A stretch of 64,000 nucleotides of DNA, from the NCBI GenBank assembly GCA_028286865.1, contig JAQBQU010000019.1:6930-70929 (forward strand). The letters are read 5' to 3'. Positions 3,723-34,001 of the stretch are shown one piece after another; positions within the stretch are counted from its first letter, which is position 1, and every line of letters begins with the position of its first letter. Below the pieces are notes generated by a model. That model ran no database searches. It saw only the letters and a program-made list of their open reading frames with translations, and was not told the origin of the DNA. The DNA comes from Candidatus Kaiserbacteria bacterium. GTDB lineage: Bacteria > Patescibacteriota > Minisyncoccia > Phycocordibacterales > UBA2100. A program made the position numbers and the translations under genes.

Positions 3723-4319
3723 ATGAATACTTCGTTCAAACAGAAAAGATCGCGCACGGGTCAGTCGGGCTTCACACTGATCGAAATGATCGTGGCGGTG
3801 GGTCTCTTTGCAGTCGTCATGATGGTCTCGGTAGGGGCACTTCTCTCGTTGGTGACTGCCAACAGAAAAGCACAGGGGCTTCAGTCGGTGATGAACAACA
3901 TGAACGTGGCGATCGACGGCATGGTACGCGCGGTACGCATGGGAAGCATCTATCATTGCGGCGAGGGCACATATACGATAGCGGCCGACTGTTCATCGGG
4001 CAATTCGGTGCTTGCGTTCGAGCCGTATCACACGGGTCCGACCGTGCCGCCGTGGATCTACTGGTATGCGACCGATTCCAAGGGTGTCGGCCGCTTGTAT
4101 AAATCCGAAGACGGAACCATCGCGAGCGGACTTCCCATCACCGCTCCCGAGGTCAGTATCGATTCGGTAAAATTCTACGTGCTGGGCTCTGCGCGCGGGG
4201 ACACGCAGCAGCCGAAGGTCCTCATCATCATCAAGGGAAGCGCCGGCAATACACAGCTCATCACGACCACCACCTTCCACATTCAGGCCACCGCGGTCCA
4301 ACGTATACTCGATCTATGA
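3723..4319 (+). CDS. Pseudopilin / minor pilin
   Basis: GQSGFTLIEMIVAVGLFAVV prepilin motif, located in the pilus operon. Confidence 0.7.
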   Translation: MNTSFKQKRSRTGQSGFTLIEMIVAVGLFAVVMMVSVGALLSLVTANRKAQGLQSVMNNMNVAIDGMVRAVRMGSIYHCGEGTYTIAADCSSGNSVLAFEPYHTGPTVPPWIYWYATDSKGVGRLYKSEDGTIASGLPITAPEVSIDSVKFYVLGSARGDTQQPKVLIIIKGSAGNTQLITTTTFHIQATAVQRILDL

Positions 4320-14167: not shown

Positions 14168-14258
14168 GCCAACGTAAGCCCAAGGGCTTTCGTCGGCTTC
14201 GCTCGCAGAAAGGCAAGTAGAAGAGGGCATGCCAACGTAAGCTAAAGCTTTCGTCGGC
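14168..14258 (+). repeat. Two tandem hairpins (63-nt period) that mimic the tRNA-Thr acceptor stem
   Basis: 14168-14197 GCCAACGTAAGCCCAAGGGCTTTCGTCGGC and 14231-14258 GCCAACGTAAGCTAAAGCTTTCGTCGGC. The outer arms equal the acceptor strands GCCGACG/CGTCGGC of the tRNA at 14305 except for one base. Confidence 0.7.
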
Positions 14259-14304
14259 AGCGTTCGGGAAAAATGTGAACGAGTTCTCATTTTGTCCCTC
14301 ACTT

Positions 14305-15016: not shown

Positions 15017-15089
15017 GCCACCTTAGCTCAGCTGGTAGAGCAACTCATTCGTAATGAGTAGGTCCCCGGTTCAAATCCGGGAGGTGGCT
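15017..15089 (+). tRNA. tRNA-Thr (CGT)
   Basis: GCCACCT-TA-GCTC-AGCTGGTA-GAGC-A-ACTCA-TTCGTAA-TGAGT-AGGTC-CCCGG-TTCAAAT-CCGGG-AGGTGGC-T. Confidence 0.9.
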
Positions 15090-15110
15090 CACGAACGAAA
15101 TGAGTGAATT

Positions 15111-15140
15111 TTGCCACCTCCAAATCCCTTTTGCTATACT
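15111..15140 (+). promoter_or_regulatory. Sigma70-type promoter of prfB, predicting a leaderless transcript
   Basis: TTGCCA (15111-15116), 18-nt spacer, TATACT (15135-15140), then 6 nt to ATG 15147. Confidence 0.55.
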
Positions 15141-23981: not shown

Positions 23982-24037
23982 GGATTTAAAATTCCCGAGA
24001 TTCTGATACACTAGCCCCACGTCGCGAAAGCGGCTAT

Positions 24038-24108
24038 TGCCGGATCGTCTAATGGTAGGACTCCTCCCTCTGGAGGAGGGTATCTTGGTTCGAATCCAAG
24101 TCCGGCAA
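24038..24108 (+). tRNA. tRNA-Gln (CTG)
   Basis: TGCCGGA-TC-GTCT-AATGGTA-GGAC-T-CCTCC-CTCTGGA-GGAGG-GTAT-CTTGG-TTCGAAT-CCAAG-TCCGGCA-A. Confidence 0.85.
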
Positions 24109-24130
24109 CAAGTGAACGAAGTGAATCTTT

Positions 24131-24244
24131 TGCCGGACGCAGGATTCGAACGGGAAAGGGGTCGGGAAAACACTCTGTTTTCCCGTGGAGGAAGGATTGG
24201 GAAAACCGTGGGTTTCCCAGTGGTTCGCAGTCCAAATCCGGCAA
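24131..24244 (+). other. 114-nt tRNA-Gln-derived structured element (not a foldable tRNA)
   Basis: Begins TGCCGGA and ends TCCGGCAA, the same acceptor strands as tRNA-Gln. The 3' part GGTTCGCAGTCCAAATCCGGCAA is a degenerate copy of the tRNA 3' end. The interior holds GGGAAAAC/GTTTTCCC/GGGAAAAC/GGTTTCCC segments. Confidence 0.6.
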
Positions 24245-24275
24245 CTCGTAGAATTTACATGATATTGTATTCCTT

Positions 24276-24644
24276 ATGGAAGGGATAAAACATGAGAAGC
24301 AGCCGACCCCGCAGCTTGTACTTGAAGCAATTAAGCGAAAATTCTCTACCTCAAGAGAGTTTATGGCAGAAGTCGTGAGCTCTTCAAAAGAGCATCGGGC
24401 TCACTCCGGTAAGCCAGACGTTGCCGGAGTGATTGCTAAACTTGCGTCCATACGTACTAATACATATGGAAGTGAAGGTGAGGGATTATCGCCAAATGAC
24501 GAATCAGTGACGCCAGACAGAGCAAAAGAGATATGGCACGAGGCGACCAATTTTGGCTTCCTGGTTGCAGCTGTTTACCATGGAGAGGCTACGTTTGTAG
24601 GGGAGAATGGTGAACTCTTGAATGCCCCTCGAAACTTTAACTAG
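24276..24644 (+). CDS. Hypothetical protein (122 aa)
   Basis: An ORF only, with no recognisable family. First gene of the repeat-delimited array. Confidence 0.45.
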   Translation: MEGIKHEKQPTPQLVLEAIKRKFSTSREFMAEVVSSSKEHRAHSGKPDVAGVIAKLASIRTNTYGSEGEGLSPNDESVTPDRAKEIWHEATNFGFLVAAVYHGEATFVGENGELLNAPRNFN

Positions 24645-24664
24645 CTGTTTCTTGGTCCAACAAA

Positions 24665-24686
24665 GTTCCAACTTCGTACCAGACCC
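24665..24686 (+). repeat. Array repeat copy 1
   Basis: GTTCCAACTTCGTACCAGACCC, 20 nt after the upstream stop. Preceded by a partial copy, GGTCCAAC. Confidence 0.8.
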
Positions 24687-24736
24687 CGTACAAGGCGTTC
24701 AAATTAGGTTACATAGAGCGGTGATATAATCCGCAT

Positions 24737-25207
24737 ATGGAAAAAGACATAACAGCGCTGCGTGCCACCGCCCTCGACTTCCTAAAGGGCCATAATGCGG
24801 GGGTAATAGCGACCGTCTCGTCAGAAGGCGATCCGCACGCATCCGTTGTTTATTATGTGGCGGACGATTCGTTTAATATTTATTTTCTGACAAAGCTGGG
24901 CAGCAGAAAATATACCGCGATCCAAGCTCATCCCGCAGCAGCTTTTACTGTCGGACGGCAGGATGTTCCACAAACACTTCAAATTGAAGGCGTAGCTGTT
25001 GAGCTTACGAACGAGGATGAGAAGCGCCCGCATGTAGCCGAATTGATGGACACACTGGCTAAAAATAATCCGCTCTATATACCGATCGCAAAAATGGATT
25101 CGGAAGTGGTCATTATGTGGATACAGCCGAAGTGGATCCGCTGGGCCGACTTTTCTGCGCATGGCATTGGCAACGAAGCGATGTTCACCGAAATTCCGGT
25201 TAACTAA
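24737..25207 (+). CDS. Pyridoxamine 5'-phosphate oxidase-family FMN-binding protein
   Basis: Split-barrel family pattern (GVIATVSSEGDPHASVVYYV...IYFLT). TATAAT + 6 nt + ATG. Confidence 0.65.
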   Translation: MEKDITALRATALDFLKGHNAGVIATVSSEGDPHASVVYYVADDSFNIYFLTKLGSRKYTAIQAHPAAAFTVGRQDVPQTLQIEGVAVELTNEDEKRPHVAELMDTLAKNNPLYIPIAKMDSEVVIMWIQPKWIRWADFSAHGIGNEAMFTEIPVN

Positions 25208-25236
25208 TTCAACACACCTCAGTTTGATCAATGGAG

Positions 25237-25258
25237 GTTCCAACTTCGTACGAGACTC
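25237..25258 (+). repeat. Array repeat copy 2
   Basis: GTTCCAACTTCGTACGAGACTC, 29 nt after the upstream stop. Confidence 0.8.
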
Positions 25259-25281
25259 CACAAGCAAGGTAGAATATCTAT

Positions 25282-25878
25282 ATGACCAAGTACGTCTTGA
25301 ATTCCGGAGGGATGCGGAATTATCCTGACAGAGCGAAGAAGTTCTTCGCTGAAGTCGTAAGCGGACTAGGTGAAAAGCCAAGGATCCTTATTTGTTGCTT
25401 TGCACAGCCGCGGGAGGACTGGGAAGAGAAATTTGAGAAAGATAAGAACACTCTTTTTGATCTATTCCCGGAAGGAATACACCCGGTCCTTGAAATGGCT
25501 TTTCCCGCGACATTCACGGAGCAGATAGAGAATTCTGATGTGGTATATATGCACGGCGGCGATGATCACTTGATCCAGTTCTGGCTGAAACAATTCGATA
25601 TTCCCAAGATCTGGGATGGAAAAGTTGTAGCCACCAGTTCGGCAAGTTCGAATGCACTCGCTCGGCATTTCTGGACCTGCGACTGGCGTCAGGCAATGGA
25701 CGGCCTTGGGATCTTACCGATAAAATTTCTAGCACATTACGATTCTGAATACGGAAAGAATGATCCTCGCGGCCCGGTCGACTGGCAGGCGGGTCGGGAA
25801 GAACTGGAGTCATTCGGGGATACGTCGATGCCGGTACACGCTCTGGGAGAAGGGGAATTCATTGTAATACATGTGTGA
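25282..25878 (+). CDS. Peptidase S51 / type-1 glutamine amidotransferase-like protein
   Basis: VYMHGGDDHLI and VVATSSASSNAL resemble the PepE-family GGN and S-A-G regions. TAGAAT + 6 nt + ATG. Confidence 0.45.
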   Translation: MTKYVLNSGGMRNYPDRAKKFFAEVVSGLGEKPRILICCFAQPREDWEEKFEKDKNTLFDLFPEGIHPVLEMAFPATFTEQIENSDVVYMHGGDDHLIQFWLKQFDIPKIWDGKVVATSSASSNALARHFWTCDWRQAMDGLGILPIKFLAHYDSEYGKNDPRGPVDWQAGREELESFGDTSMPVHALGEGEFIVIHV

Positions 25879-26377
25879 TATGGAAGATGTCGTCGTTGTA
25901 AATGAGAAAGACGAAGTGATCGGCATGATGCCTAAGAATGAAGCGCATCAGAATGGGACACTGCATCGGATCGTTGTCGTTTATATCGAAAACGATAGCG
26001 GAGAATTTCTGGTACAGATCCGCGCCGACGGATTGCTCGATCATTCGGCAGCAGGGCACGTCTTCCCGGACGAGTCGTATATGGACGCCGGGAAACGAGA
26101 ACTTTTAGAGGAGCTTGAGATCACTGCTTCAAGCCTCGCGTACGTGGGTCACGGATCTACTCGTAATGAGCGACAGGCGGGCAAGATCAGTTCGCATGAA
26201 TTCGATATCTTCACGTATACGGCAGAACCGGGAAAGTTGCAGGAAGATGAGGTGAAAGACGTATATTGGGCGAAGCCCGAGCACGTGCTGAAAGATATGC
26301 AGATGAACGGCGATAAATATTGCGAGGGGTTCAAGGTGTCGTTGCCTATTTTTCGATCATTTCAGCAGACTCGATAG
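25871..26377 (+). CDS. NUDIX hydrolase
   Basis: Nudix box GHVFPDESYMDAGKRELLEELEI. Overlaps the upstream gene by 8 nt (alternative ATG at 25880). Confidence 0.75.
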   Translation: MCDMEDVVVVNEKDEVIGMMPKNEAHQNGTLHRIVVVYIENDSGEFLVQIRADGLLDHSAAGHVFPDESYMDAGKRELLEELEITASSLAYVGHGSTRNERQAGKISSHEFDIFTYTAEPGKLQEDEVKDVYWAKPEHVLKDMQMNGDKYCEGFKVSLPIFRSFQQTR

Positions 26378-26379
26378 AG

Positions 26380-26401
26380 GTTCCAACTTCGTATCAGGAC
26401 T
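26380..26401 (+). repeat. Array repeat copy 3
   Basis: GTTCCAACTTCGTATCAGGACT, 2 nt after the stop. Its TTCGTA lies 17 nt upstream of the next gene's TACAAT. Confidence 0.8.
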
Positions 26402-26422
26402 CGGTTCGTATACAATGACGTT

Positions 26423-26851
26423 ATGACCGCAATGTTCGGAAGTTACGATGTATCCGATCGGGTGATCGTCGAGAACGATAGCGCTTTCGCTTTTCCCACA
26501 AACATACCGATTGTCTCGGGCCATGTACTCATTGCCCCTAAGCGCATCGTCGAGAAGTACGAAGACCTCTCCGAGGCGGAGCGCAGCGCCATCGAAGACC
26601 TCAGGCAAAAGATAAAGCATGCGCTTACGACAGTGTTTGCCGCGGAAGGATTTAATTACGCATGGAATGAAGCGAGGATCGGCGGGCAGTCAGTGCCGCA
26701 CTTTCATTTACATGTAGTTCCCAGAAAAGAGGGTGACGCCGGTATCTCTAATTATGAGCCTCGGGAGTTTCTATACCGCCCGGGCCCGCGACCGGAGAGC
26801 CCTGATGCAGAGCTCGTGGAAGTCGCGAATTCTGTTCGAGCCGCTCTATAG
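26423..26851 (+). CDS. HIT-family hydrolase
   Basis: Histidine triad VPHFHLHVVPR. TACAAT + 6 nt + ATG. Confidence 0.8.
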   Translation: MTAMFGSYDVSDRVIVENDSAFAFPTNIPIVSGHVLIAPKRIVEKYEDLSEAERSAIEDLRQKIKHALTTVFAAEGFNYAWNEARIGGQSVPHFHLHVVPRKEGDAGISNYEPREFLYRPGPRPESPDAELVEVANSVRAAL

Positions 26852-26937
26852 CGGTTCTCGGGGCGATATAGAAATGAGCTTCCGGCCTCGTCCCTTATCC
26901 CAACAAATGACAGACTGAGTTTTGCTATACTTTCGGG

Positions 26938-27507
26938 ATGAGAAAACTTGTACTCTTCCTGCATCTATCGTTCGACGGATTCAGTGCCGCAGAAGATGGT
27001 GGGCTTGGTTGGATACCCTATAACGAGGCATTTGAGAAATATGCTGAGAAAATAGTTAAAACCGTAGGGACGCCGGTATACGGGCGCATTACGTACGAGA
27101 TGATGAGATCATATTGGCCGACCGTACTAACGAATCCGGCTGCATCTGCGCACGATAGAGAGCATGCGCTATGGCTAGAGGATGTAGAGAAGATCGTCGT
27201 TTCGACAACGCTCCCGGAACAAGAGTGGAACAACACCAGAGTGATACGTGAGGATGTCGTTGAAGAGATCATTAAGCTGAAACAAAAAGAGGGGAAGGAC
27301 CTCGTTATCTTCGGCAGCATAACGCTCGCTACGTCGCTCATGGCGCATGGCCTTATTGACGAGTTTCAATTCACCGTGAGCCCCGTCATGCTGGGGAAAG
27401 GAAAGACCTTTATACGAAGTATAGAGGAGAAGGTCCCGCTCAAACTTTTGTCATCAGAGACACTCAAGAGCGGAATAGTAGGCCTTCACTATGCAGTCGT
27501 CCGCTAA
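26938..27507 (+). CDS. Dihydrofolate reductase-family protein (RibD C-terminal domain)
   Basis: MRKLVLFLHLSFDGF... and DLVIFGSITLATSL...FTVSPVMLGKGKTF, typical of the family. TATACT + 6 nt + ATG. Confidence 0.7.
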   Translation: MRKLVLFLHLSFDGFSAAEDGGLGWIPYNEAFEKYAEKIVKTVGTPVYGRITYEMMRSYWPTVLTNPAASAHDREHALWLEDVEKIVVSTTLPEQEWNNTRVIREDVVEEIIKLKQKEGKDLVIFGSITLATSLMAHGLIDEFQFTVSPVMLGKGKTFIRSIEEKVPLKLLSSETLKSGIVGLHYAVVR

Positions 27508-27508
27508 G

Positions 27509-27537
27509 GTTCTTACGTCAACTCTTCGTACCGATAC
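27509..27537 (+). repeat. Array repeat copy 4 (with internal insertion)
   Basis: GTTCttacgtCAACTcTTCGTACCGATAC, 1 nt after the stop. Its TTCGTA lies 17 nt upstream of TAAGAT. Confidence 0.7.
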
Positions 27538-27559
27538 CCGGGTCTGTTAAGATGCAATT

Positions 27560-27838
27560 ATGGAGAATAAGAATATAAAGGCAGTGGTGATCGGCGAGCC
27601 GTCAGGCGCGAGTATGGATGCGATCATGGAAATATTTCCGCGGCACAAAGCGGTATTGGACAAATATATACAAAATGGCGACGTGATCGGCGTCGGCCCT
27701 TTTTCCGACATGGGAAATATGGCGATATTTAGATCGCGGGCCGCGGCAGAGGCTTTTGCAGCTGAAGATCCTTTTGTTCTAGAGGGGGTGGTGAAATCAT
27801 TCGCTATCCGCGACTGGAATGACAGTTTATTGAAATAA
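27560..27838 (+). CDS. YciI-family protein
   Basis: 92 aa with a YCII-like pattern (GVGPFSD...AEDPFVLEGVV...W). TAAGAT + 6 nt + ATG. Confidence 0.6.
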   Translation: MENKNIKAVVIGEPSGASMDAIMEIFPRHKAVLDKYIQNGDVIGVGPFSDMGNMAIFRSRAAAEAFAAEDPFVLEGVVKSFAIRDWNDSLLK

Positions 27839-27839
27839 A

Positions 27840-27861
27840 GTTCCAACGTCGTACCAGTCCG
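27840..27861 (+). repeat. Array repeat copy 5
   Basis: GTTCCAACGTCGTACCAGTCCG, 1 nt after the stop. No same-strand gene lies downstream; the next gene converges. Confidence 0.8.
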
Positions 27862-27887
27862 CCGATCGGGGAGGGTAGAAAAGATGA

Positions 27888-28337
27888 TTACTTGTTGACT
27901 ATCCTATCGAAATCACCCAAAACAGATCCTCCTTTTCTTACGATATCTTGAGTGCGCTTTATCACAGTATTTCTATCGGTTCGGATCGCCGTGATCCATT
28001 TTCGCGAGGCGCCCGTGCGAGGGTCATGTGCCGCACCCCATTCGGTCAGATCGAGTAATAGCGGGATCAGATCCAGGCCTTTGGCCGTTAGGTGATACTC
28101 CTCCTTTCGCTGATCGATCTTACTGAGCGACTTACTAAGGATCCCTTTTTTCTCCAGGACCGCCAGCCGATGAGCGAGTACGCTCGTTCCGATGCGCTCC
28201 GCCGATCCCAAGAATTCACCGTATGTGTTTTTGCCAAAGTACACGATGTCGCGCACGATAAGTAGCGACCATGGGTCGCCAAACGTCTCCAGAGCAAAAT
28301 TTATTGCACAGTCTGATTTCCTGTCCGTTCGTTTCAT
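27888..28337 (-). CDS. HxlR-family transcriptional regulator
   Basis: CAINFALETFGDPWSLLIVRDI...EYHLTAKG winged-helix pattern. Divergent from a hydrolase gene. Confidence 0.8.
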   Translation of the reverse strand: MKRTDRKSDCAINFALETFGDPWSLLIVRDIVYFGKNTYGEFLGSAERIGTSVLAHRLAVLEKKGILSKSLSKIDQRKEEYHLTAKGLDLIPLLLDLTEWGAAHDPRTGASRKWITAIRTDRNTVIKRTQDIVRKGGSVLGDFDRIVNK

Positions 28338-28357
28338 GTGAACAGTGTATCACATTC

Positions 28358-28378
28358 ACTTACATTATGAAAGTAAGT
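28358..28378. promoter_or_regulatory. Candidate operator in the HxlR/hydrolase divergent region
   Basis: Inverted repeat ACTTAC-N9-GTAAGT, with a second repeat, ATGTGA-N7-TCACAT, at about 28336-28354. Confidence 0.35.
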
Positions 28379-28421
28379 ATGATACGCTGATCATAAGACA
28401 TTAGCAATAAGGAAACCAATT

Positions 28422-29198
28422 ATGAATACTGTTATTTCCAAAGACGGGACAAAGATCGCTTATGATCGCACCGGAATTGGGCCCGCGCTCATACTGGTCG
28501 GAGGTGCATTACAGCATAGATCCGACCAATTGATGGGCCGATTAGCGCCCCTGCTCGCAAAAGATTTTACCGTTATCAGCTATGACCGCCGTGGTCGGGG
28601 AGACAGTACCGATGGAAGATCATACGCTACTGATCGGGAGATCGAGGATCTTGAATCCGTGATTACAGAAGCCGGCGGATCAGCATACGTTTTTGGCATG
28701 TCATCCGGAGGAATTTTGGCACTTTTGGCAGCTACGAAACTGCCCTACATCACGAAGATCGCGGTATACGAAGCGCCTTTTATATCTGATCAAGAGATAG
28801 GCACAGGTGCGGCAGAATACACGGCGCAGCTTAAGGAGGCTGTAGCAGGTGATGAGCGCAGCAAGGCAGTGAAGCTATTTATGAAGCGAATCGGTATGCC
28901 GGCACCGATACTTTTTATAATGCGCCTTATGCCCATGTGGTCACAATTGAAAAAACTCGCGCCGACACTTGTGTACGACGCGCTCATTGTGGGCGATGGT
29001 AGTGTGCCTCAACAATTCGCATCTATTACCGCCCCGACTCTATTGGTGACCGGGATGTCCGATCCAATGAAGGAAGGTGCTCGGGCAGCTGCCGGCATAC
29101 TTCCCAACGCACAACACAAGGTACTTGAAGGACAAACACACAACGTCAAGCCGGATGTACTTGCGCCCGTGTTGAGAACTTTCTTCAAAGGAAACTAA
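28422..29198 (+). CDS. Alpha/beta hydrolase
   Basis: GMSSGG nucleophile elbow in a 258-aa alpha/beta fold. AAGGAA SD before the ATG, unlike the leaderless neighbours. Confidence 0.75.
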   Translation: MNTVISKDGTKIAYDRTGIGPALILVGGALQHRSDQLMGRLAPLLAKDFTVISYDRRGRGDSTDGRSYATDREIEDLESVITEAGGSAYVFGMSSGGILALLAATKLPYITKIAVYEAPFISDQEIGTGAAEYTAQLKEAVAGDERSKAVKLFMKRIGMPAPILFIMRLMPMWSQLKKLAPTLVYDALIVGDGSVPQQFASITAPTLLVTGMSDPMKEGARAAAGILPNAQHKVLEGQTHNVKPDVLAPVLRTFFKGN

Positions 29199-29273
29199 CG
29201 AAGTGATGAGTCGTCTGGTATTTCACGAACTCGGGCTATTCAGGAATAAATATGTGCGTTATCATCGGCATCT

Positions 29274-29951
29274 ATGCAGGATGATCACGAACACGATCAC
29301 GACCATAATCATGGTCACCACGACCACGATACTCATTCAGAACACGGCCACAGTCATGGTCTCGTAGACGAATCCATTATCCGATCAAAAGAAGGGGTAA
29401 AAGCGGTAAGTATCAGTCTCGCGGTCCTACTCGCCGCCTCGTTGATACAAGTGGGTATTTTCTCCATAACCAATTCCGTCTCGCTGCTCGCGGACGTGAT
29501 ACACAATTTCGGCGATGCGCTCACGGCGGTGCCGCTCGCGATCGCGTTCTTGCTGCGAAACAAGGTGGCGGAGAAATATTCCGGCTATTTCGTAGTCGGC
29601 GCTATTTTCATTAGTGCCTGTGTCGCCGGTTATACCGCGTTTGATCGGTTGATCCATCCACACATGGTCTCGCACTTGTATGCGCTTATCGCAGCAGGAA
29701 TTATCGGCTTCTTAGGCAATGAAATTGCTGCAGTCATCCGACTTCGGGCAGGGAAGCACCTGAATAGTCCGGCGCTTATCGCCGACGGCGATCACGCGCG
29801 CGTCGATGGTCTCGTGAGTCTTTCGGTCGTTGCAAGCGGAATTCTGGTAGCACTCGGATCGCAGATCGCGGACCCTGTCATCGGCCTGCTCATGACCGCT
29901 CTTATTCTCAGGATCACGTGGCAGTCATACGAGACCATTCGAAACGTCTAA
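29274..29951 (+). CDS. Cation diffusion facilitator transporter (short; no obvious cytoplasmic C-terminal domain)
   Basis: His/Asp-rich N-terminus (DHEHDHDHNHGHHDHD) and a TM core with the HNFGDALTA and ADGDHARVD motifs. Confidence 0.7.
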   Translation: MQDDHEHDHDHNHGHHDHDTHSEHGHSHGLVDESIIRSKEGVKAVSISLAVLLAASLIQVGIFSITNSVSLLADVIHNFGDALTAVPLAIAFLLRNKVAEKYSGYFVVGAIFISACVAGYTAFDRLIHPHMVSHLYALIAAGIIGFLGNEIAAVIRLRAGKHLNSPALIADGDHARVDGLVSLSVVASGILVALGSQIADPVIGLLMTALILRITWQSYETIRNV

Positions 29952-29957
29952 CATCTT

Positions 29958-30425
29958 TTACTGAATATAAGTGGCAAGTTTTTCGAGCTGCTGCGTAAAG
30001 CCCGCTTCCATGCCCTGCACGGCCATTCCTGCTTTCGGACCAGTTTTGAGAATAGCGGCTTTAATTTCGATCTTTGTCTTGCCGTCTACCTCGCGCAACA
30101 CGATCTCAGTCGTCTGATCGATGAGTGTTTCTTCTTTCATGCCCTCGGTCCATGCTTGGGCCGTATAGGAAAGCTTCGCATTCGGTTCGACTTCGGTGAA
30201 TTCTGCGAGCATTGGCCACTTCGTGCCTTTGTACGGTCCCATCGCTTCGCCCGCTTCCATCACGATGTAAAATTTTCCGCCGACTCGCAGATCTACTTCA
30301 CATTCGGGAATGCTGACGTTGTTCGGCCCCCACCATTGCATCAGCTCTTTCGGATCGGTCCATGCCTTCCATACTTTCTCGATCGGGGCGTCCACTGTTC
30401 TCTCGATCGTAATTGCTTTTTCCAT
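29958..30425 (-). CDS. SRPBCC / AHSA1-domain protein
   Basis: ITIERTVDAPIEKVWKAWTDPKELMQWWGP is typical of the family. Downstream of arsR-type regulator on the same strand. Confidence 0.75.
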   Translation of the reverse strand: MEKAITIERTVDAPIEKVWKAWTDPKELMQWWGPNNVSIPECEVDLRVGGKFYIVMEAGEAMGPYKGTKWPMLAEFTEVEPNAKLSYTAQAWTEGMKEETLIDQTTEIVLREVDGKTKIEIKAAILKTGPKAGMAVQGMEAGFTQQLEKLATYIQ

Positions 30426-30428
30426 ACA

Positions 30429-30755
30429 TTATTTATTAGGTTTTAAAAACTCTTCTAATCGGTCTATTTTTTCCTCCCACAAGATTCGGTACTGCGCTAA
30501 GTACGTATCTGCCCTGCCCAGTCCGGCAGGGGAGAGTTCGACCTTTTGCTCGCGTCCGCTCCGGCGTTTTCGCACGAGCCGTGCCCGCTCGAGCACTTGG
30601 AGGTGTTTGGAAACGGCCGCAAAGGTAAGGTCATAATGCTGCGCGAGTTCACCCACGGTGTGCTCGCGCGGCCGCAAACGGCGCAATATATCGCGCCGCG
30701 TCGGATCGGCGAGCGACTGGAATATCACATCAAGATCCTTGCTATATTCAACCAT
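30429..30755 (-). CDS. ArsR/SmtB-family transcriptional regulator
   Basis: FQSLADPTRRDILRRL...VSKHLQVLERARLV. I chose the internal Met at 30755 because a consensus promoter lies just upstream. Confidence 0.75.
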   Translation of the reverse strand: MVEYSKDLDVIFQSLADPTRRDILRRLRPREHTVGELAQHYDLTFAAVSKHLQVLERARLVRKRRSGREQKVELSPAGLGRADTYLAQYRILWEEKIDRLEEFLKPNK

Positions 30756-30762
30756 ATAGTTG

Positions 30763-30791
30763 AATATATACCGCGCCGCATGAGGTGTCAA
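30763..30791 (-). promoter_or_regulatory. Promoter of the arsR-SRPBCC operon
   Basis: On the minus strand: TTGACA, 17-nt spacer, TATATT, then 7 nt to the ATG. Confidence 0.55.
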
Positions 30792-30878
30792 TGCGGACAC
30801 TCGCTGCTTTTGTCGGACGTCGACAGCTTTCGCAAAACGATATGAATGTTTCTGCAGTACATATGCTAGCCTAAATAC

Positions 30879-31454
30879 ATGTCGGATACTCGAACAGATC
30901 AAGAACTCGTGGTAGCGGCGCTGAAAGACCGCCACGCGTTCATTGAGATCGTAGAGCGATACCAAGCTGCGCTCAGTCGCTATATAGCGCGTCTCGGCAT
31001 CACTGATGCTGATACCGTGAAAGACCTCCTGCAGGAATCATTTATCAAGGCCTATATAAACCTCAATGATTACAACCGATCATTTTCGCTCAGCGGCTGG
31101 CTGTATCGCATCGTTCACAATGAAGTGATCGATCATTTCCGAAAGCAGAAGCACCGCCCTCATTCTGTGGAGCGGGAAGATGATCTCGTGCTCTTCGACA
31201 AAATTGTTGACGAATTTGATATAGAGAAAGAACTCGACGGGCGCAAACGTCAGTACGTCATGCGAGAGGCACTCGACACCCTCGAGCAGCACTATCGCGA
31301 CGTCATCGTGCTCCGGTATTTTGAAGAGAAATCGTATGATGAGATCTCGGATATTCTGAGGATCCCGAGCGGGACCGTGGCGACCTACCTCAGTCGGGCA
31401 AAGTCGAAGCTCAAAGCGGTGTTAATGCGATTATATGATCAGCGTATACTGTAA
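30879..31454 (+). CDS. ECF-type RNA polymerase sigma-70 factor
   Basis: Region 2 (LLQESFIKAY...WLYRIVHNEVIDHFRK) and region 4 (SYDEISDILRIPSGTVATYLSRAK). Confidence 0.85.
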   Translation: MSDTRTDQELVVAALKDRHAFIEIVERYQAALSRYIARLGITDADTVKDLLQESFIKAYINLNDYNRSFSLSGWLYRIVHNEVIDHFRKQKHRPHSVEREDDLVLFDKIVDEFDIEKELDGRKRQYVMREALDTLEQHYRDVIVLRYFEEKSYDEISDILRIPSGTVATYLSRAKSKLKAVLMRLYDQRIL

Positions 31455-31457
31455 ATT

Positions 31458-31931
31458 ATGAACACATTATCTGAACAGATCGCCAAAGAACTCGAGTCAC
31501 GGGGCGCATCGCCGAAGCCGCGTTGGCATTTCCTTGTAGCGCGGGGGACCTTTTGGCTGCTTGCGGTCACATCGGTGTTGATCGGCGGCATCGCGTTTGC
31601 CGTGGCATCATTCGTCTTCTTTGACAACGACGGAGCGAGCATGAGCGTGCTCGAACGATCATCCATATACGACATTGCACAGAGCATTCCATTTGTATGG
31701 CTCGCGATATTCGGACTCTTCACGGCGAGTACGTACGCCGGCTTTCGTAACACACGCTCAGGATACAAATATGCGACATCACTCGTGATCATAGTCGCAA
31801 TACTCGCGAGTATTGCGCTGGGATTACTACTCAACACGCTCGACTTCGGACAAAATGTCCACCGCTATTTGCTCGAGCACACAAGCTTTTATGATCCGCT
31901 CATTCACTCACGTGAAGACCTGCCTGATTAG
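31458..31931 (+). CDS. Membrane protein, candidate anti-sigma factor
   Basis: Starts 4 nt after the sigma gene and has about 4 TM segments. The function is inferred from position only. Confidence 0.35.
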   Translation: MNTLSEQIAKELESRGASPKPRWHFLVARGTFWLLAVTSVLIGGIAFAVASFVFFDNDGASMSVLERSSIYDIAQSIPFVWLAIFGLFTASTYAGFRNTRSGYKYATSLVIIVAILASIALGLLLNTLDFGQNVHRYLLEHTSFYDPLIHSREDLPD

Positions 31932-32008
31932 GGCCTGAAAGGAAATCCCGCCGGGTAGCGTACTACTAATATGGGCGAAAGCCCGCAATTAGCAGTTAGT
32001 ATTACACT

Positions 32009-32326
32009 ATGGTTTTATCGAGAACATATATTGCGATCGTGGTCGCATTTGCAGTGGGAGTCATCGGGGCGGTAGGATTCTCTGTTCATGCGCAAAGCAT
32101 TCCAGCCACTACAACTACCGATCAGGTAGCGGCAGTGAGCACTACAGCGACCCAGGTCTCTGATGGTGATGGGGAACAGCCGGATGCTACGGAAGCATCC
32201 GCCCAGGATGCTTCCGGTACCGATCTTGAGACCGCAGATGACGGTCAGACCGGTTCTGCCGACGCGACCGATGCCCCTGACGCCCCGGACACAGGCTCGT
32301 CCGGCTCAGAGGTACAGGGGGATTAG
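32009..32326 (+). CDS. Membrane-anchored acidic low-complexity protein
   Basis: N-terminal TM/signal segment followed by a T/D/A/G-rich tail (DGDGEQPDATEASAQDASGTDLETADDG). Confidence 0.4.
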   Translation: MVLSRTYIAIVVAFAVGVIGAVGFSVHAQSIPATTTTDQVAAVSTTATQVSDGDGEQPDATEASAQDASGTDLETADDGQTGSADATDAPDAPDTGSSGSEVQGD

Positions 32327-32343
32327 TCGAAAGACTGCACGAA

Positions 32344-32375
32344 ATGTACCAGGGCCTGACCCCGCCCTGGTACAT
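32344..32375 (+). terminator. Hairpin terminator
   Basis: ATGTACCAGGGC-ctgacccc-GCCCTGGTACAT, a perfect 12-bp stem followed by TTCTT. Confidence 0.6.
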
Positions 32376-32404
32376 TCTTGTGTTATATTTTTATATATTG
32401 CACT

Positions 32405-33175
32405 ATGAATACAACTCTCAGGCAAATGCTCAATAAGGTCCCGGAAATCACTCTTTATTTCTGGATCATCAAAATACTCTGTACGACCGTCGGCGAGACA
32501 GCGGCGGATTTCTTGAACACTGCACTCGGTTTCGGACTCACCAACACGACCTATGTGATGGGAGCGATCCTCATTGCGGTGCTCATCGCGCAATTCAGAT
32601 CCTCGAAATATGTGCCCTCGGTCTATTGGCTCGCCGTGGTGCTCCTGAGCGTTGTCGGTACGCTCATCACCGACAATCTCACCGATAATTTCGGCGTCTC
32701 ACTCGTCACGACCACCGTCATATTTGCGATCGCACTCGCGGCTATATTCGCGGGATGGTATGCGAGCGAAAAAACGCTCTCTATCCACAGCATCGTCACG
32801 ACGCGTCGCGAAACGTTCTACTGGCTCGCAATTCTTTTCACGTTTGCCTTGGGCACGGCCGCAGGAGATCTGAGTGCCGAGCGTTTCGCGCTCGGGTATC
32901 TGACATCGGCCCTTATCTTCGGCGGCTTGATCGCCATAATCTATGCAGCGTATCGATTTCGTCTCAATGCGGTCTTGGCATTCTGGCTCGCGTACATTCT
33001 CACGCGCCCCCTCGGCGCATCGATCGGCGACTATCTCTCGCAATCTCCCGATGACGGCGGCCTCGGATTGGGGACGACCACTACGAGCTTTATATTCCTC
33101 GCCGCAATTCTGCTGCTCGTGATATATCTCACGGTAACAAAAAGGGATCGTATACAAACGCAGATAACTACATAA
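32405..33175 (+). CDS. Polytopic membrane protein (COG4705-like)
   Basis: Two repeats of the TxGETAADF / GTAAGDL motif in TM context. The track start at 32378 precedes the likely -10 box. Confidence 0.5.
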   Translation: MNTTLRQMLNKVPEITLYFWIIKILCTTVGETAADFLNTALGFGLTNTTYVMGAILIAVLIAQFRSSKYVPSVYWLAVVLLSVVGTLITDNLTDNFGVSLVTTTVIFAIALAAIFAGWYASEKTLSIHSIVTTRRETFYWLAILFTFALGTAAGDLSAERFALGYLTSALIFGGLIAIIYAAYRFRLNAVLAFWLAYILTRPLGASIGDYLSQSPDDGGLGLGTTTTSFIFLAAILLLVIYLTVTKRDRIQTQITT

Positions 33176-33226
33176 GTTCAATTTTCACCTGATTCTCAAT
33201 CAAATATAGTCTGGTAGAATTCTCGC

Positions 33227-33574
33227 ATGTCAGGATTCCGCACGCCCGAGAGCCAGGCTGAATACGAGCGGGTATTGCCGGAGATACTCAGTCATGGATG
33301 TCCGTTGTGCACGAAGCAGGCCGTAGAATCGTTCGTACATTGGAAGATCGTCACCGATGACTTTCCGTACAACAAGATCGCGAAATTGCATCATGTGCTC
33401 ACGCCGCTGCGACATGTGTTAGAGCGAGAGCTGAACGGCGAAGAACGTCAGGAATATCACGATATTAAGGAGGAGCAGCTAGAAGGGAAATATGAATACG
33501 TAATTGAGCCGATCGGCCAGCACCGTTCGGTCCCGGGACATTTTCACACGCACCTGATCGTCTCGCTCGATTAA
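33227..33574 (+). CDS. Small HIT-like protein
   Basis: C-terminal GHFHTHLI histidine-triad-like motif. TAGAAT + 6 nt + ATG. Confidence 0.4.
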   Translation: MSGFRTPESQAEYERVLPEILSHGCPLCTKQAVESFVHWKIVTDDFPYNKIAKLHHVLTPLRHVLERELNGEERQEYHDIKEEQLEGKYEYVIEPIGQHRSVPGHFHTHLIVSLD

Positions 33575-33575
33575 C

Positions 33576-33998
33576 ATGCACATTCTTTTTGTGTGTCAGG
33601 GCAATGTAAATCGCAGTCAGATGGCTGCCACTATAATGCGAGCTTTGCGACCGGATATCGAAGTGGTGTCTGCGGGTGTCATGGCAGAGAACGCGGGAGA
33701 TATGGTATCTGATGTATCCGAGAAGGGTATAGAGGTGATGAAAGAGCTCGGCTATGATATGTCGCACAATAAAATATCGCAGCTTGAACCGCAGATGGTT
33801 GATGCAGCCGAGAGGGTAATACTCATGGGCGAACTTCCTGAATCCGCCGCGCCGGATTATTTGAAGAATTCTCCGAAGCTCGAAACGTGGGACGTGCCTG
33901 ATCCCGGATACGGACACATCACCCATGCAGCTGCGCGCGATATGATCCTGGAAAAAGTGAAAGACCTCGCGGAGCGGGTCGGGCACGAGCATAAATAA
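33576..33998 (+). CDS. Low-molecular-weight phosphotyrosine phosphatase / arsenate reductase family
   Basis: N-terminal ILFVCQGNVNRS is the CX5R(S) P-loop. Confidence 0.8.
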   Translation: MHILFVCQGNVNRSQMAATIMRALRPDIEVVSAGVMAENAGDMVSDVSEKGIEVMKELGYDMSHNKISQLEPQMVDAAERVILMGELPESAAPDYLKNSPKLETWDVPDPGYGHITHAAARDMILEKVKDLAERVGHEHK

Positions 33999-34001
33999 AA
34001 A

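Follow-up and report, generated by a model that had tools for sequence, protein, structure and literature searches.

A small structured element with a conserved core and target-derived arms behind tRNA-Gln in a Candidatus Kaiserbacteria genome

The tRNA-Gln locus and the adjacent element

In this work, a stretch of 64,000 nt from Candidatus Kaiserbacteria contig JAQBQU010000019.1 (hereafter, the window) was analyzed with a focus on a 114-nt element that lies a short distance downstream of a tRNA-Gln gene and shares terminal sequences with it. The gene, tRNA-Gln(CTG), is intact and occupies positions 24038..24108 of the + strand (ARAGORN; 59.5 bits with the Rfam tRNA model), with the discriminator A at 24108. 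A 22-nt spacer (24109-24130) separates it from the element (24131-24244), which caps the gene, begins with TGCCGGA and ends with TCCGGCAA; the latter sequence is found 8 times in the window, compared with 2.5 expected occurrences.

All parts of the element are read on the + strand. The segment of tRNA-Gln designated T (24088..24108), which spans the T-loop, the 3' strand of the T-stem, the 3' strand of the acceptor and the discriminator, is the same part that is copied into both arms of related elements at other tRNAs. It is followed by a loop or leader (24109..24129) with the motif GAACGAAGTGAA and by the anti-T arm (24130..24151), the reverse complement of T, composed as TTGCCGGAC-GCA-GGATTCGAAC. 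The sequence after the spacer, TGCCGGACGCAGGATTCGAAC, is the reverse complement of the tRNA-Gln segment from the T-loop to the acceptor 3' strand; its two blocks match tRNA-Gln at every position (10/10 for GGATTCGAAC and 9/9 for TTGCCGGAC) and are joined by GCA, where the tRNA complement would give TT. The conserved core of this copy is its interior, 24152-24221, and includes the linker GGGAAA with GGGGTC (24152..24163), hairpin H1 (CGGGAAAAC-ACTCT-GTTTTCCCG; 24163..24185), junction J2 (GUGGAGGA, then AGGAUU; 24186..24198), and hairpin H2 (GGGAAAACC-GTG-GGTTTCCC, with a single bulged A; 24199..24218). The element is closed by T' (24222..24244; GGTTCGCAGTCCAAATCCGGCAA), an altered direct second copy of the tRNA-Gln 3' end that pairs with anti-T.

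The original prediction for this locus had given the coordinates of the gene and the element, the acceptor-strand ends, the inverted and degenerate direct copies of the tRNA end, and the interior motifs: GGGAAAAC at 24164 and 24199, GTTTTCCC at 24177, and, by direct reading, GGTTTCCC at 24211 and GGGAAA at 24152. Base-for-base agreement was obtained for all of these. It had also proposed an attenuator-like topology, in which the second and third interior motifs could pair as an alternative; this pairing is not needed, and H1 and H2, a tandem pair of 35 nt with 73% identity, are kept as separate hairpins. Its statement that the element does not form a cloverleaf was borne out: ARAGORN finds no tRNA at 24131-24244, Rfam gives no match at E<=10, and the resemblance to tRNA is limited to the acceptor strands and a damaged T-loop. 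Nor does ARAGORN find a tmRNA at the element, the 5' end of which we take to resemble that of tmRNA; its acceptor pairs are U1-A72, G2-C71 and C3-G70, versus G3:U70 in tmRNA.

The element is predicted to fold with a minimum free energy (MFE) of -48.1 kcal/mol (z = -3.3 relative to shuffled sequences), and tRNA-Gln together with the element with an MFE of -96.8 kcal/mol (z = -6.5). According to the folding model, a read-through transcript would favour T:anti-T pairing over the tRNA-Gln cloverleaf. No terminator was found between tRNA-Gln and the element in the window. A small open reading frame (ORF) behind the GGAGG of J2 is, by eye, not conserved between the window and two of the homologous copies introduced below (L033 and L021; loci outside the window are numbered with the prefix L), and a tRNA-like fold of the minus strand was rejected because its T-stem 5' strand is not conserved (by eye).

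Extent, layout and fold of the family

The original prediction had named a search for further copies and a comparison with Rfam as checks, and these gave many copies and no known RNA family, respectively. The invariant interior of other copies was converted to an exact core search pattern, GGGGTCGGGRRAA and TTYYCCCGYGNNGGA separated by a gap of 4-14 nt, which is matched in at least 120 metagenome contigs and is also fitted by the window copy. A total of 127 copies are listed, and all family-wide counts of copies, arms and hairpins reported below were taken among the matches listed for this pattern. The parts GGGGTCGGG and G-Y-G-NN-GGA are fixed in the pattern, so the constancy of either is no evidence by itself. 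A covariance model of the core, R1, was built from 53 sequences, the window sequence among them. Within the window, R1 gives a single match at 24151-24223 (72.5 bits, E = 1e-21, full model length), which includes H2, and the next + strand match in the 64 kb scores below 10 bits.

The family also occurs in genomes of Kaiserbacteria, Harrisonbacteria, Parcubacteria, Minisyncoccia and Saccharibacteria. Scanning of species-representative genomes with the 3'-terminal 22-mer of tRNA-Gln yielded 28 loci, and in 5 of the 28 species a homologous element is located right after tRNA-Gln. Four of these copies are full: L033 from Minisyncoccia (R1 score of 71 bits), which is nearly identical to the window copy over the aligned length, and L021 from Parcubacteria, L016 from Harrisonbacteria and L020 from Saccharibacteria, each with an R1 score of 40-41 bits. 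The fifth, L026 from Kaiserbacteria, is truncated at the 3' end. The exact core pattern has no match in IMG/VR. In Rfam 15, no family was matched at E<=10 by the window or at E<=1 by 12 further copies, and the same was true for 9 genome loci; only tRNAs and scattered noise were returned. We found no description of such an element in the literature, where only papers on Patescibacteria group I introns turned up. The window element belongs to a large, widespread and apparently undescribed family, ascribed to CPR/Patescibacteria, that apparently fits no described kind.

Along the strand, the parts are arranged in the order gene body, T, loop, anti-T, 6-nt linker, core and T'. The elements are ~110-220 nt in size and encode no protein. 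Their core of ~70-130 nt contains, in order, the linker GRGAAA, GGGGUC, H1, GYGNNGGA, an optional hairpin and H2, to which long forms add a hairpin and CGAC; the window copy, with its 22-nt leader, belongs to the short type. The A-rich linker, which lies outside the search pattern, is at least 90% conserved at two positions.

Upstream sequence of at least 130 nt is present for 117 copies. A tRNA end is located within 130 nt upstream on the same strand in 55 of these 117 and on the opposite strand in none; 16 isotypes are represented, and GGGGTC lies a median of 67 nt from the tRNA end. Anti-T comprises 9-20 nt 5' of the linker and ends 5-7 nt before GGGGTC. It complements the copy's own tRNA in 45 of 55 cases, compared with 15% for other-isotype controls, while T' repeats the last 13-20 nt of the own tRNA in 41 of 54 copies (3% in controls), taking in the discriminator and, if it is gene-encoded, also the CCA. 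The window copy has the same arm layout, with anti-T at 24130-24151, the 6-nt linker, and T' at 24222-24244. Targets other than tRNAs include the tmRNA 3' end (L044), the C-terminus of ribosomal protein S7 (L063), the 3' ends of other ORFs (L054 and L060), and, on the opposite strand, the N-terminal G1-motif region, i.e. the 5' end, of translational GTPase genes (L064, L085 and L100). The length of the copied target segment ranges from ~13 to ~75 nt, with 13-20 nt at tRNAs and 73 nt in L060.

The motif GAACGAAGTGAA is located between the tRNA and the arm at tRNAs for Gln (L026, L033), Lys (L103), Val (L105) and Thr (L145; window 15089-15112). Since it is common to short-type copies at different tRNAs, the loop is considered part of the element and not a tRNA trailer. 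In copies at tRNAs, T' carries a subfamily-specific pseudo-T-loop in place of its T-loop part, namely GTGAGAT, GTTCTTGTC, GGTTCTAG-hairpin-GGA, or GTTCGCAGTCC, the last of which is the altered T-loop shared by the window T' and L033. Some tRNA copies, e.g. L016, contain a giant foldback palindrome of T, trailer and arm. As a general plan this foldback was rejected: inner-loop self-complementarity is only 0.64 versus 0.55 in shuffled sequences, and protein-gene copies have none.

Several loci depart from the common arm or core. The arm is replaced by a GCGCA-GAAU-hairpin-GAUGAAU-GCGC module in L045, L046, L056, L061, L073, L090 and L136, and a similar module is found downstream. The module resembles a kink-turn or loop-E motif, and L136 has a second copy 2.6 kb away. 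In L013 (7930-8000), L025 (contig end) and L036 (1-190, minus strand), an inverted tRNA-Gln-end arm is followed by an unrelated structured core (..CGGAGCG..), and in the latter two a hairpin splits the arm between its acceptor and T-stem parts. At tRNA-Arg(tct) of L051, the functional tRNA has the unusual T-loop TCCGATT, T' has the canonical TTCGATT, and anti-T fits the unusual form.

Evidence for a folded single strand, probably RNA of the + strand, comes from covariation, which is observed in the core helices and between a junction and a loop, and from loops of the GNRA and UNCG types. Among 114 copies, one of the H1 pairs that the pattern leaves free as R/Y is GC in 59, AU in 51, GU in 4 and AC in none, and another is AU in 101, GC in 11, GU in 2 and AC in none; the H1 loops are mostly GNRA, with some UNCG. 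RNAalifold, applied to the 114-sequence alignment, gave H1 alone, as the optional hairpins broke the alignment, and H2 was therefore analyzed by a script. In 107 unique copies, the H2 stem has a mean length of 9.6 bp, uses all four Watson-Crick pair types, and has a conserved A.G. The free NN of J2 covaries with the H2 loop: GT is combined with GCAA in 12 of 13 cases, and GC with GAGG, GCTG or GATG in 17 of 19, which suggests a tertiary contact. The sequence GCGAAGC, a very stable mini-hairpin, recurs among the copies.

Insertion pattern and genomic surroundings

The conserved gene just upstream of tRNA-Gln, CapA (NCBI JWM46_854 in the window), was used as the synteny anchor. In relatives with CapA 67-72% identical, the order FtsX, PyrG, EEP (an endonuclease/exonuclease/phosphatase-family protein), CapA and tRNA-Gln is kept, and tRNA-Gln is identical or nearly so, with no element behind it; in L002-L006, the tRNA-Gln sequence is the same as in the window and the element is absent. 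The genes beyond tRNA-Gln are different in each relative. Thus far, the original proposal that the element marks the left edge of an accessory region agrees with the gene content; against it, L002 shares the cation-efflux and Lactamase_B_3 genes with window region 24000-34000, and no mobility genes are present there. The GC content of this region is 48-51% versus 55-58% upstream, and it carries the small same-strand genes PNPOx, S51 peptidase, NUDIX, HIT and RibD_C. The Logan contig SRR13312974_690493 (L001), which contains the window's exact CapA and an identical tRNA-Gln, ends at the last base of tRNA-Gln, i.e. at the element boundary; this break could result from repeats or population heterogeneity.

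Cores with an identical or nearly identical H1 segment (34-35 nt) are found at tRNAs for Ala, Val, Arg and Gln, and a single contig, L071, carries two similar copies at different targets. At protein-coding targets, the two copies of the gene segment can be compared directly. Both T and T' encode MSRDYPLEKVRNFGIVA in L085, with ~12 synonymous differences, and FAHFAW* in L063, also with synonymous differences; in L060, they are identical at 73/73 positions up to the stop codon, and in L100 they are diverged in an orthologue-like manner. Because the element is antisense at GTPase genes, so that translation in place cannot keep T', the two segments probably derive from different lineages; if so, arrival would have been horizontal. 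Anti-T is mostly a perfect complement of T even when T' is diverged or decayed (L105, L041 and L112); T and anti-T would therefore travel or be kept together, with T' as the odd one out.

No linked protein family was found: when 1068 ORFs around ~120 copies were clustered, no cluster was present in more than 6 loci, those inspected were housekeeping, and no linked recombinase, reverse transcriptase or nuclease emerged. In the window, neither integrase nor transposase was found among the Pfam-scanned ORFs at 20-48 kb. A LAGLIDADG-like ORF cluster (..YWAEGSKG..) was noticed in 4 loci (L160, L128 and two more), ~0.5 kb downstream of the core; these ORFs may encode homing endonucleases of rRNA introns instead of partners of the element.

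A second trace of the family may be present in the window, on the + strand after tRNA-Thr(cgt). In region 15080-15121, this tRNA is followed by ACGAACGAAATGAGTGAATTTT and then by GCCACCTCC, which reads as the reverse complement of the acceptor 3' strand of the same tRNA. The sequence, with a loop ACGAACGAA..GAGTGAAT and the anti-T GCCACCTCC at 15089..15121, looks like a decayed family copy that has lost its core, and L145 has an intact copy at tRNA-Thr(cgt). For the release-factor gene downstream, TTGCCA within this putative remnant could serve as a candidate -35 box, at a spacing of 18 nt from TATACT. Upstream of another gene, tRNA-Thr(ggt), region 14169-14258 contains two similar hairpins (GCCAACGTAAGC..GCTTTCGTCGGC), followed by a GTGAACGA motif at 14275; the 3' arms of these hairpins end with CGTCGGC, the complement of the tRNA-Thr(ggt) acceptor 5' strand.

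Interpretation and comparison with known systems

With moderate confidence, we interpret the element as a non-autonomous, selfish, mobile structured element that spares its target gene by duplicating the end of the gene. It would enter at a highly conserved segment near the gene end and keep the gene intact, as the full copy of the gene end (T) would stay joined to the gene body and the other copy (T') would be left beyond the core. The core and the closing helices would fold as a single strand, most likely + strand RNA. Mobility would require trans-acting functions as well as templated copying of the target sequence into both arms; such a templated step is proposed because the targets change fast and the core changes little. 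For the window copy, and with the same moderate confidence, the tRNA-Gln gene is expected to stay functional, and three positions of T' appear to reflect drift or remodelling. Recombination, with the duplicated segment as portable homology, is a possible route of spread between genomes; a T' of ~20 nt seems too short for ordinary homologous recombination.

Several observations weigh against a mobile element. No mobile intermediate, nucleotide-level pair of empty and filled alleles, or trans-acting enzyme was found, the model does not account for how the arms would come to fit a new target, and the assignment of T and T' as resident or incoming copy is an inference. Attribution to the candidate phyla radiation (CPR) rests on 7 genomes. 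Terminator-like hairpins (a stem plus a T run, by eye) precede many copies, which weighs against co-transcription with the target; given these hairpins, the folded strand may be single-stranded DNA instead of RNA. The arm-less copies L076, L114 and L159 lie exactly between two tRNAs, which fits an RNA freed by RNase P and RNase Z, and the strong core conservation and tertiary covariation could equally reflect an RNA that is useful to the host.

The last two points lead to a rather unlikely explanation, according to which the family is a host-beneficial structured non-coding RNA (ncRNA) with a functional core (e.g. protein-binding or catalytic). The RNA would be transcribed together with tRNAs or after them, RNase P and RNase Z would trim it since its closing helix mimics an acceptor/T-stem minihelix, and copies would spread by ordinary duplication. 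The helix and junction-loop covariation, the GNRA and UNCG loops and the position of the arm-less copies flush between two tRNAs would all be expected of such an RNA, as would the absence of a terminator between tRNA-Gln and the element in the window and the copying of the tRNA top half by the closing helix and discriminator, with the CCA too if it is gene-encoded. It is harder to reconcile with the patchy presence among close relatives, with closing helices that are not tRNA-like at protein genes, with copies antisense to GTPase genes, with T' fragments from other lineages, and with the frequent location of the core behind terminator-like hairpins; moreover, no conserved protein partner was found nearby. 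The structured ncRNA co-transcribed with tRNA-Gln that was originally suggested is upheld as to a real conserved structure, whereas its co-transcription is at odds with the many copies behind terminator-like hairpins and with those antisense to their target. A host-useful RNA role is compatible with the data and with mobility, as the two are not mutually exclusive.

Three further explanations were considered for the duplicated and inverted tRNA ends. A classical miniature inverted-repeat transposable element (MITE), i.e. a deletion derivative of a transposon with a transposase that recognizes fixed terminal inverted repeats and makes a short target duplication of fixed length, would also be small, non-coding and multi-copy with inverted termini. 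It is improbable, given that the termini differ per target and equal the target's own sequence, with no family-constant inverted repeats, that the duplicated target varies from ~13 to ~75 nt, that no transposase is linked, and that core conservation obeys RNA-like covariation. Of the tRNA-derived MITE in the original prediction, the multi-copy and non-coding nature is retained; only the arms, which vary per target, are tRNA-derived, and the core is unrelated to tRNA. For a small self-splicing or self-cleaving intron-like ribozyme, in which anti-T would serve as the internal guide sequence and T' would be the 3' exon, one may cite the guide-core-exon copy order, which resembles a trans-splicing group I design, the G before T' in most long forms, and the abundance of group I introns in Patescibacteria, where they occupy tRNA, tmRNA and protein genes (PMC13011429). 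This is very unlikely: the gene is complete without the element, which lies outside it, the pairing partner of anti-T is the start of T and not the sequence 5' of it, the core is only ~70-130 nt long with no Rfam match to group I (RF00028) or a ribozyme, and splicing from the mRNA of GTPase genes is impossible for an antisense copy. Intron models were rejected on account of the arm geometry and the antisense copies. Least credible to us, and rejected, is the att-site scar or nested att duplication of the original prediction, left by an integrase-driven island at tRNA-Gln. It would explain the direct repeat of the tRNA-Gln 3' end and the varying downstream gene content of relatives; in addition, degenerate 3'-end direct repeats (CAAGTCCGGCAAC, then GTGCAAGTCCTGCAAC) occur without the core downstream of tRNA-Gln in L017 (~4020-4300) and may be classic att remnants. 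It fails to explain the presence of the same core at 16 tRNA isotypes and at protein genes; there is no integrase among the Pfam-scanned ORFs at 20-48 kb, no further tRNA-Gln 3'-end copy or far-end partner in the 64 kb, and no IMG/VR contig with the tRNA-Gln end or the core. A phage origin was likewise rejected, as the tRNA-Gln 3' 22-mer and two core patterns gave no true IMG/VR match, 4 matches to a loose pattern being coding sequence or terminators.

Compared with described systems, the family combines features that are otherwise found apart or reversed. Integrative elements that target tRNA and tmRNA 3' ends follow the attB/attP logic of tyrosine integrases. As in the family reported here, the gene is preserved by a supplied or duplicated 3' end, a direct repeat from the T-loop to the 3' end flanks the insert, and tmRNA and conserved protein-gene ends are also used; in contrast, our elements have no integrase and no cargo, measure 110-220 nt as a whole, and target nearly every tRNA isotype, and only they, not att sites, possess a conserved folded core and an inverted target copy. 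Integron attC and CTX-phage attP(+) are folded single-strand recombination sites. They resemble the family in being non-coding imperfect hairpins with a closing stem completed by neighbouring target sequence and in their strict orientation, and GCGAAGC recurs. Unlike attC, the present elements have a variable, target-derived stem and a conserved interior, the reverse of attC, and lack RYYYAAC/GTTRRRY boxes; their arm ends vary by target, and no link to IntI or Xer was found. MITEs, REP/REPIN, ERIC and Correia elements are also short, structured, multi-copy, intergenic and protein-less, but their termini are constant within a family, whereas in the present elements the termini are copied from the target and constancy is confined to the interior.

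TnpB/IscB omega-RNAs and R2 ribozyme-processed RNAs combine a conserved scaffold with sequence from the flank. As here, ~15-20 nt that are identical to the flanking target come directly after the structured scaffold; the differences are that our elements carry no nuclease or reverse-transcriptase gene, that their antisense arm pairs with the flank copy, and that the gene end is duplicated. The Patescibacteria group I introns (PMC13011429) share with the family the hosts, the kinds of conserved targets and guide-like pairing, whereas the element lies outside the gene, is far smaller, shows no Rfam group I signature, and can be antisense. Upstream of copies in L052 (1620-1760) and L072 (11230-11370), a tRNA-like T-arm and acceptor 3' strand were seen that ARAGORN does not call; judging from the sequence, the intervening segment resembles the position 35/36 group I introns reported for Patescibacteria tRNA-Asn and tRNA-Asp, and introns may account for the missed calls.

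We put forward, tentatively, that the family may represent a new class of mobile elements: a protein-less module of folded RNA or single-stranded DNA that writes sense and antisense copies of its target into its own closing helices. It would invade essential genes at their best-conserved parts, namely the T-arm and acceptor of tRNAs, tmRNA, the G1 motif of GTPases, and the ends of ribosomal-protein genes. The underlying mechanism, for which there is no known precedent, would be self-templating or resemble a guide, and at least two unrelated cores would share the same arm logic.

The family has practical and biological implications. It explains partial tRNA duplicates in CPR genomes, which could be misread as att sites in CPR metagenome-assembled genomes, and the element may underlie some assembly breaks. 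The R1 model and the search pattern are a ready marker for insertion polymorphism at the population level. Tiny as CPR genomes are, they tolerate many copies of the element next to their most essential genes. Should the element be a host RNA, a major RNA family associated with tRNA loci would have gone unrecognised. Should it be mobile, it would have neither a protein gene of its own nor fixed ends, its targeting information would be the copy of the target, and such a mechanism could be programmable.

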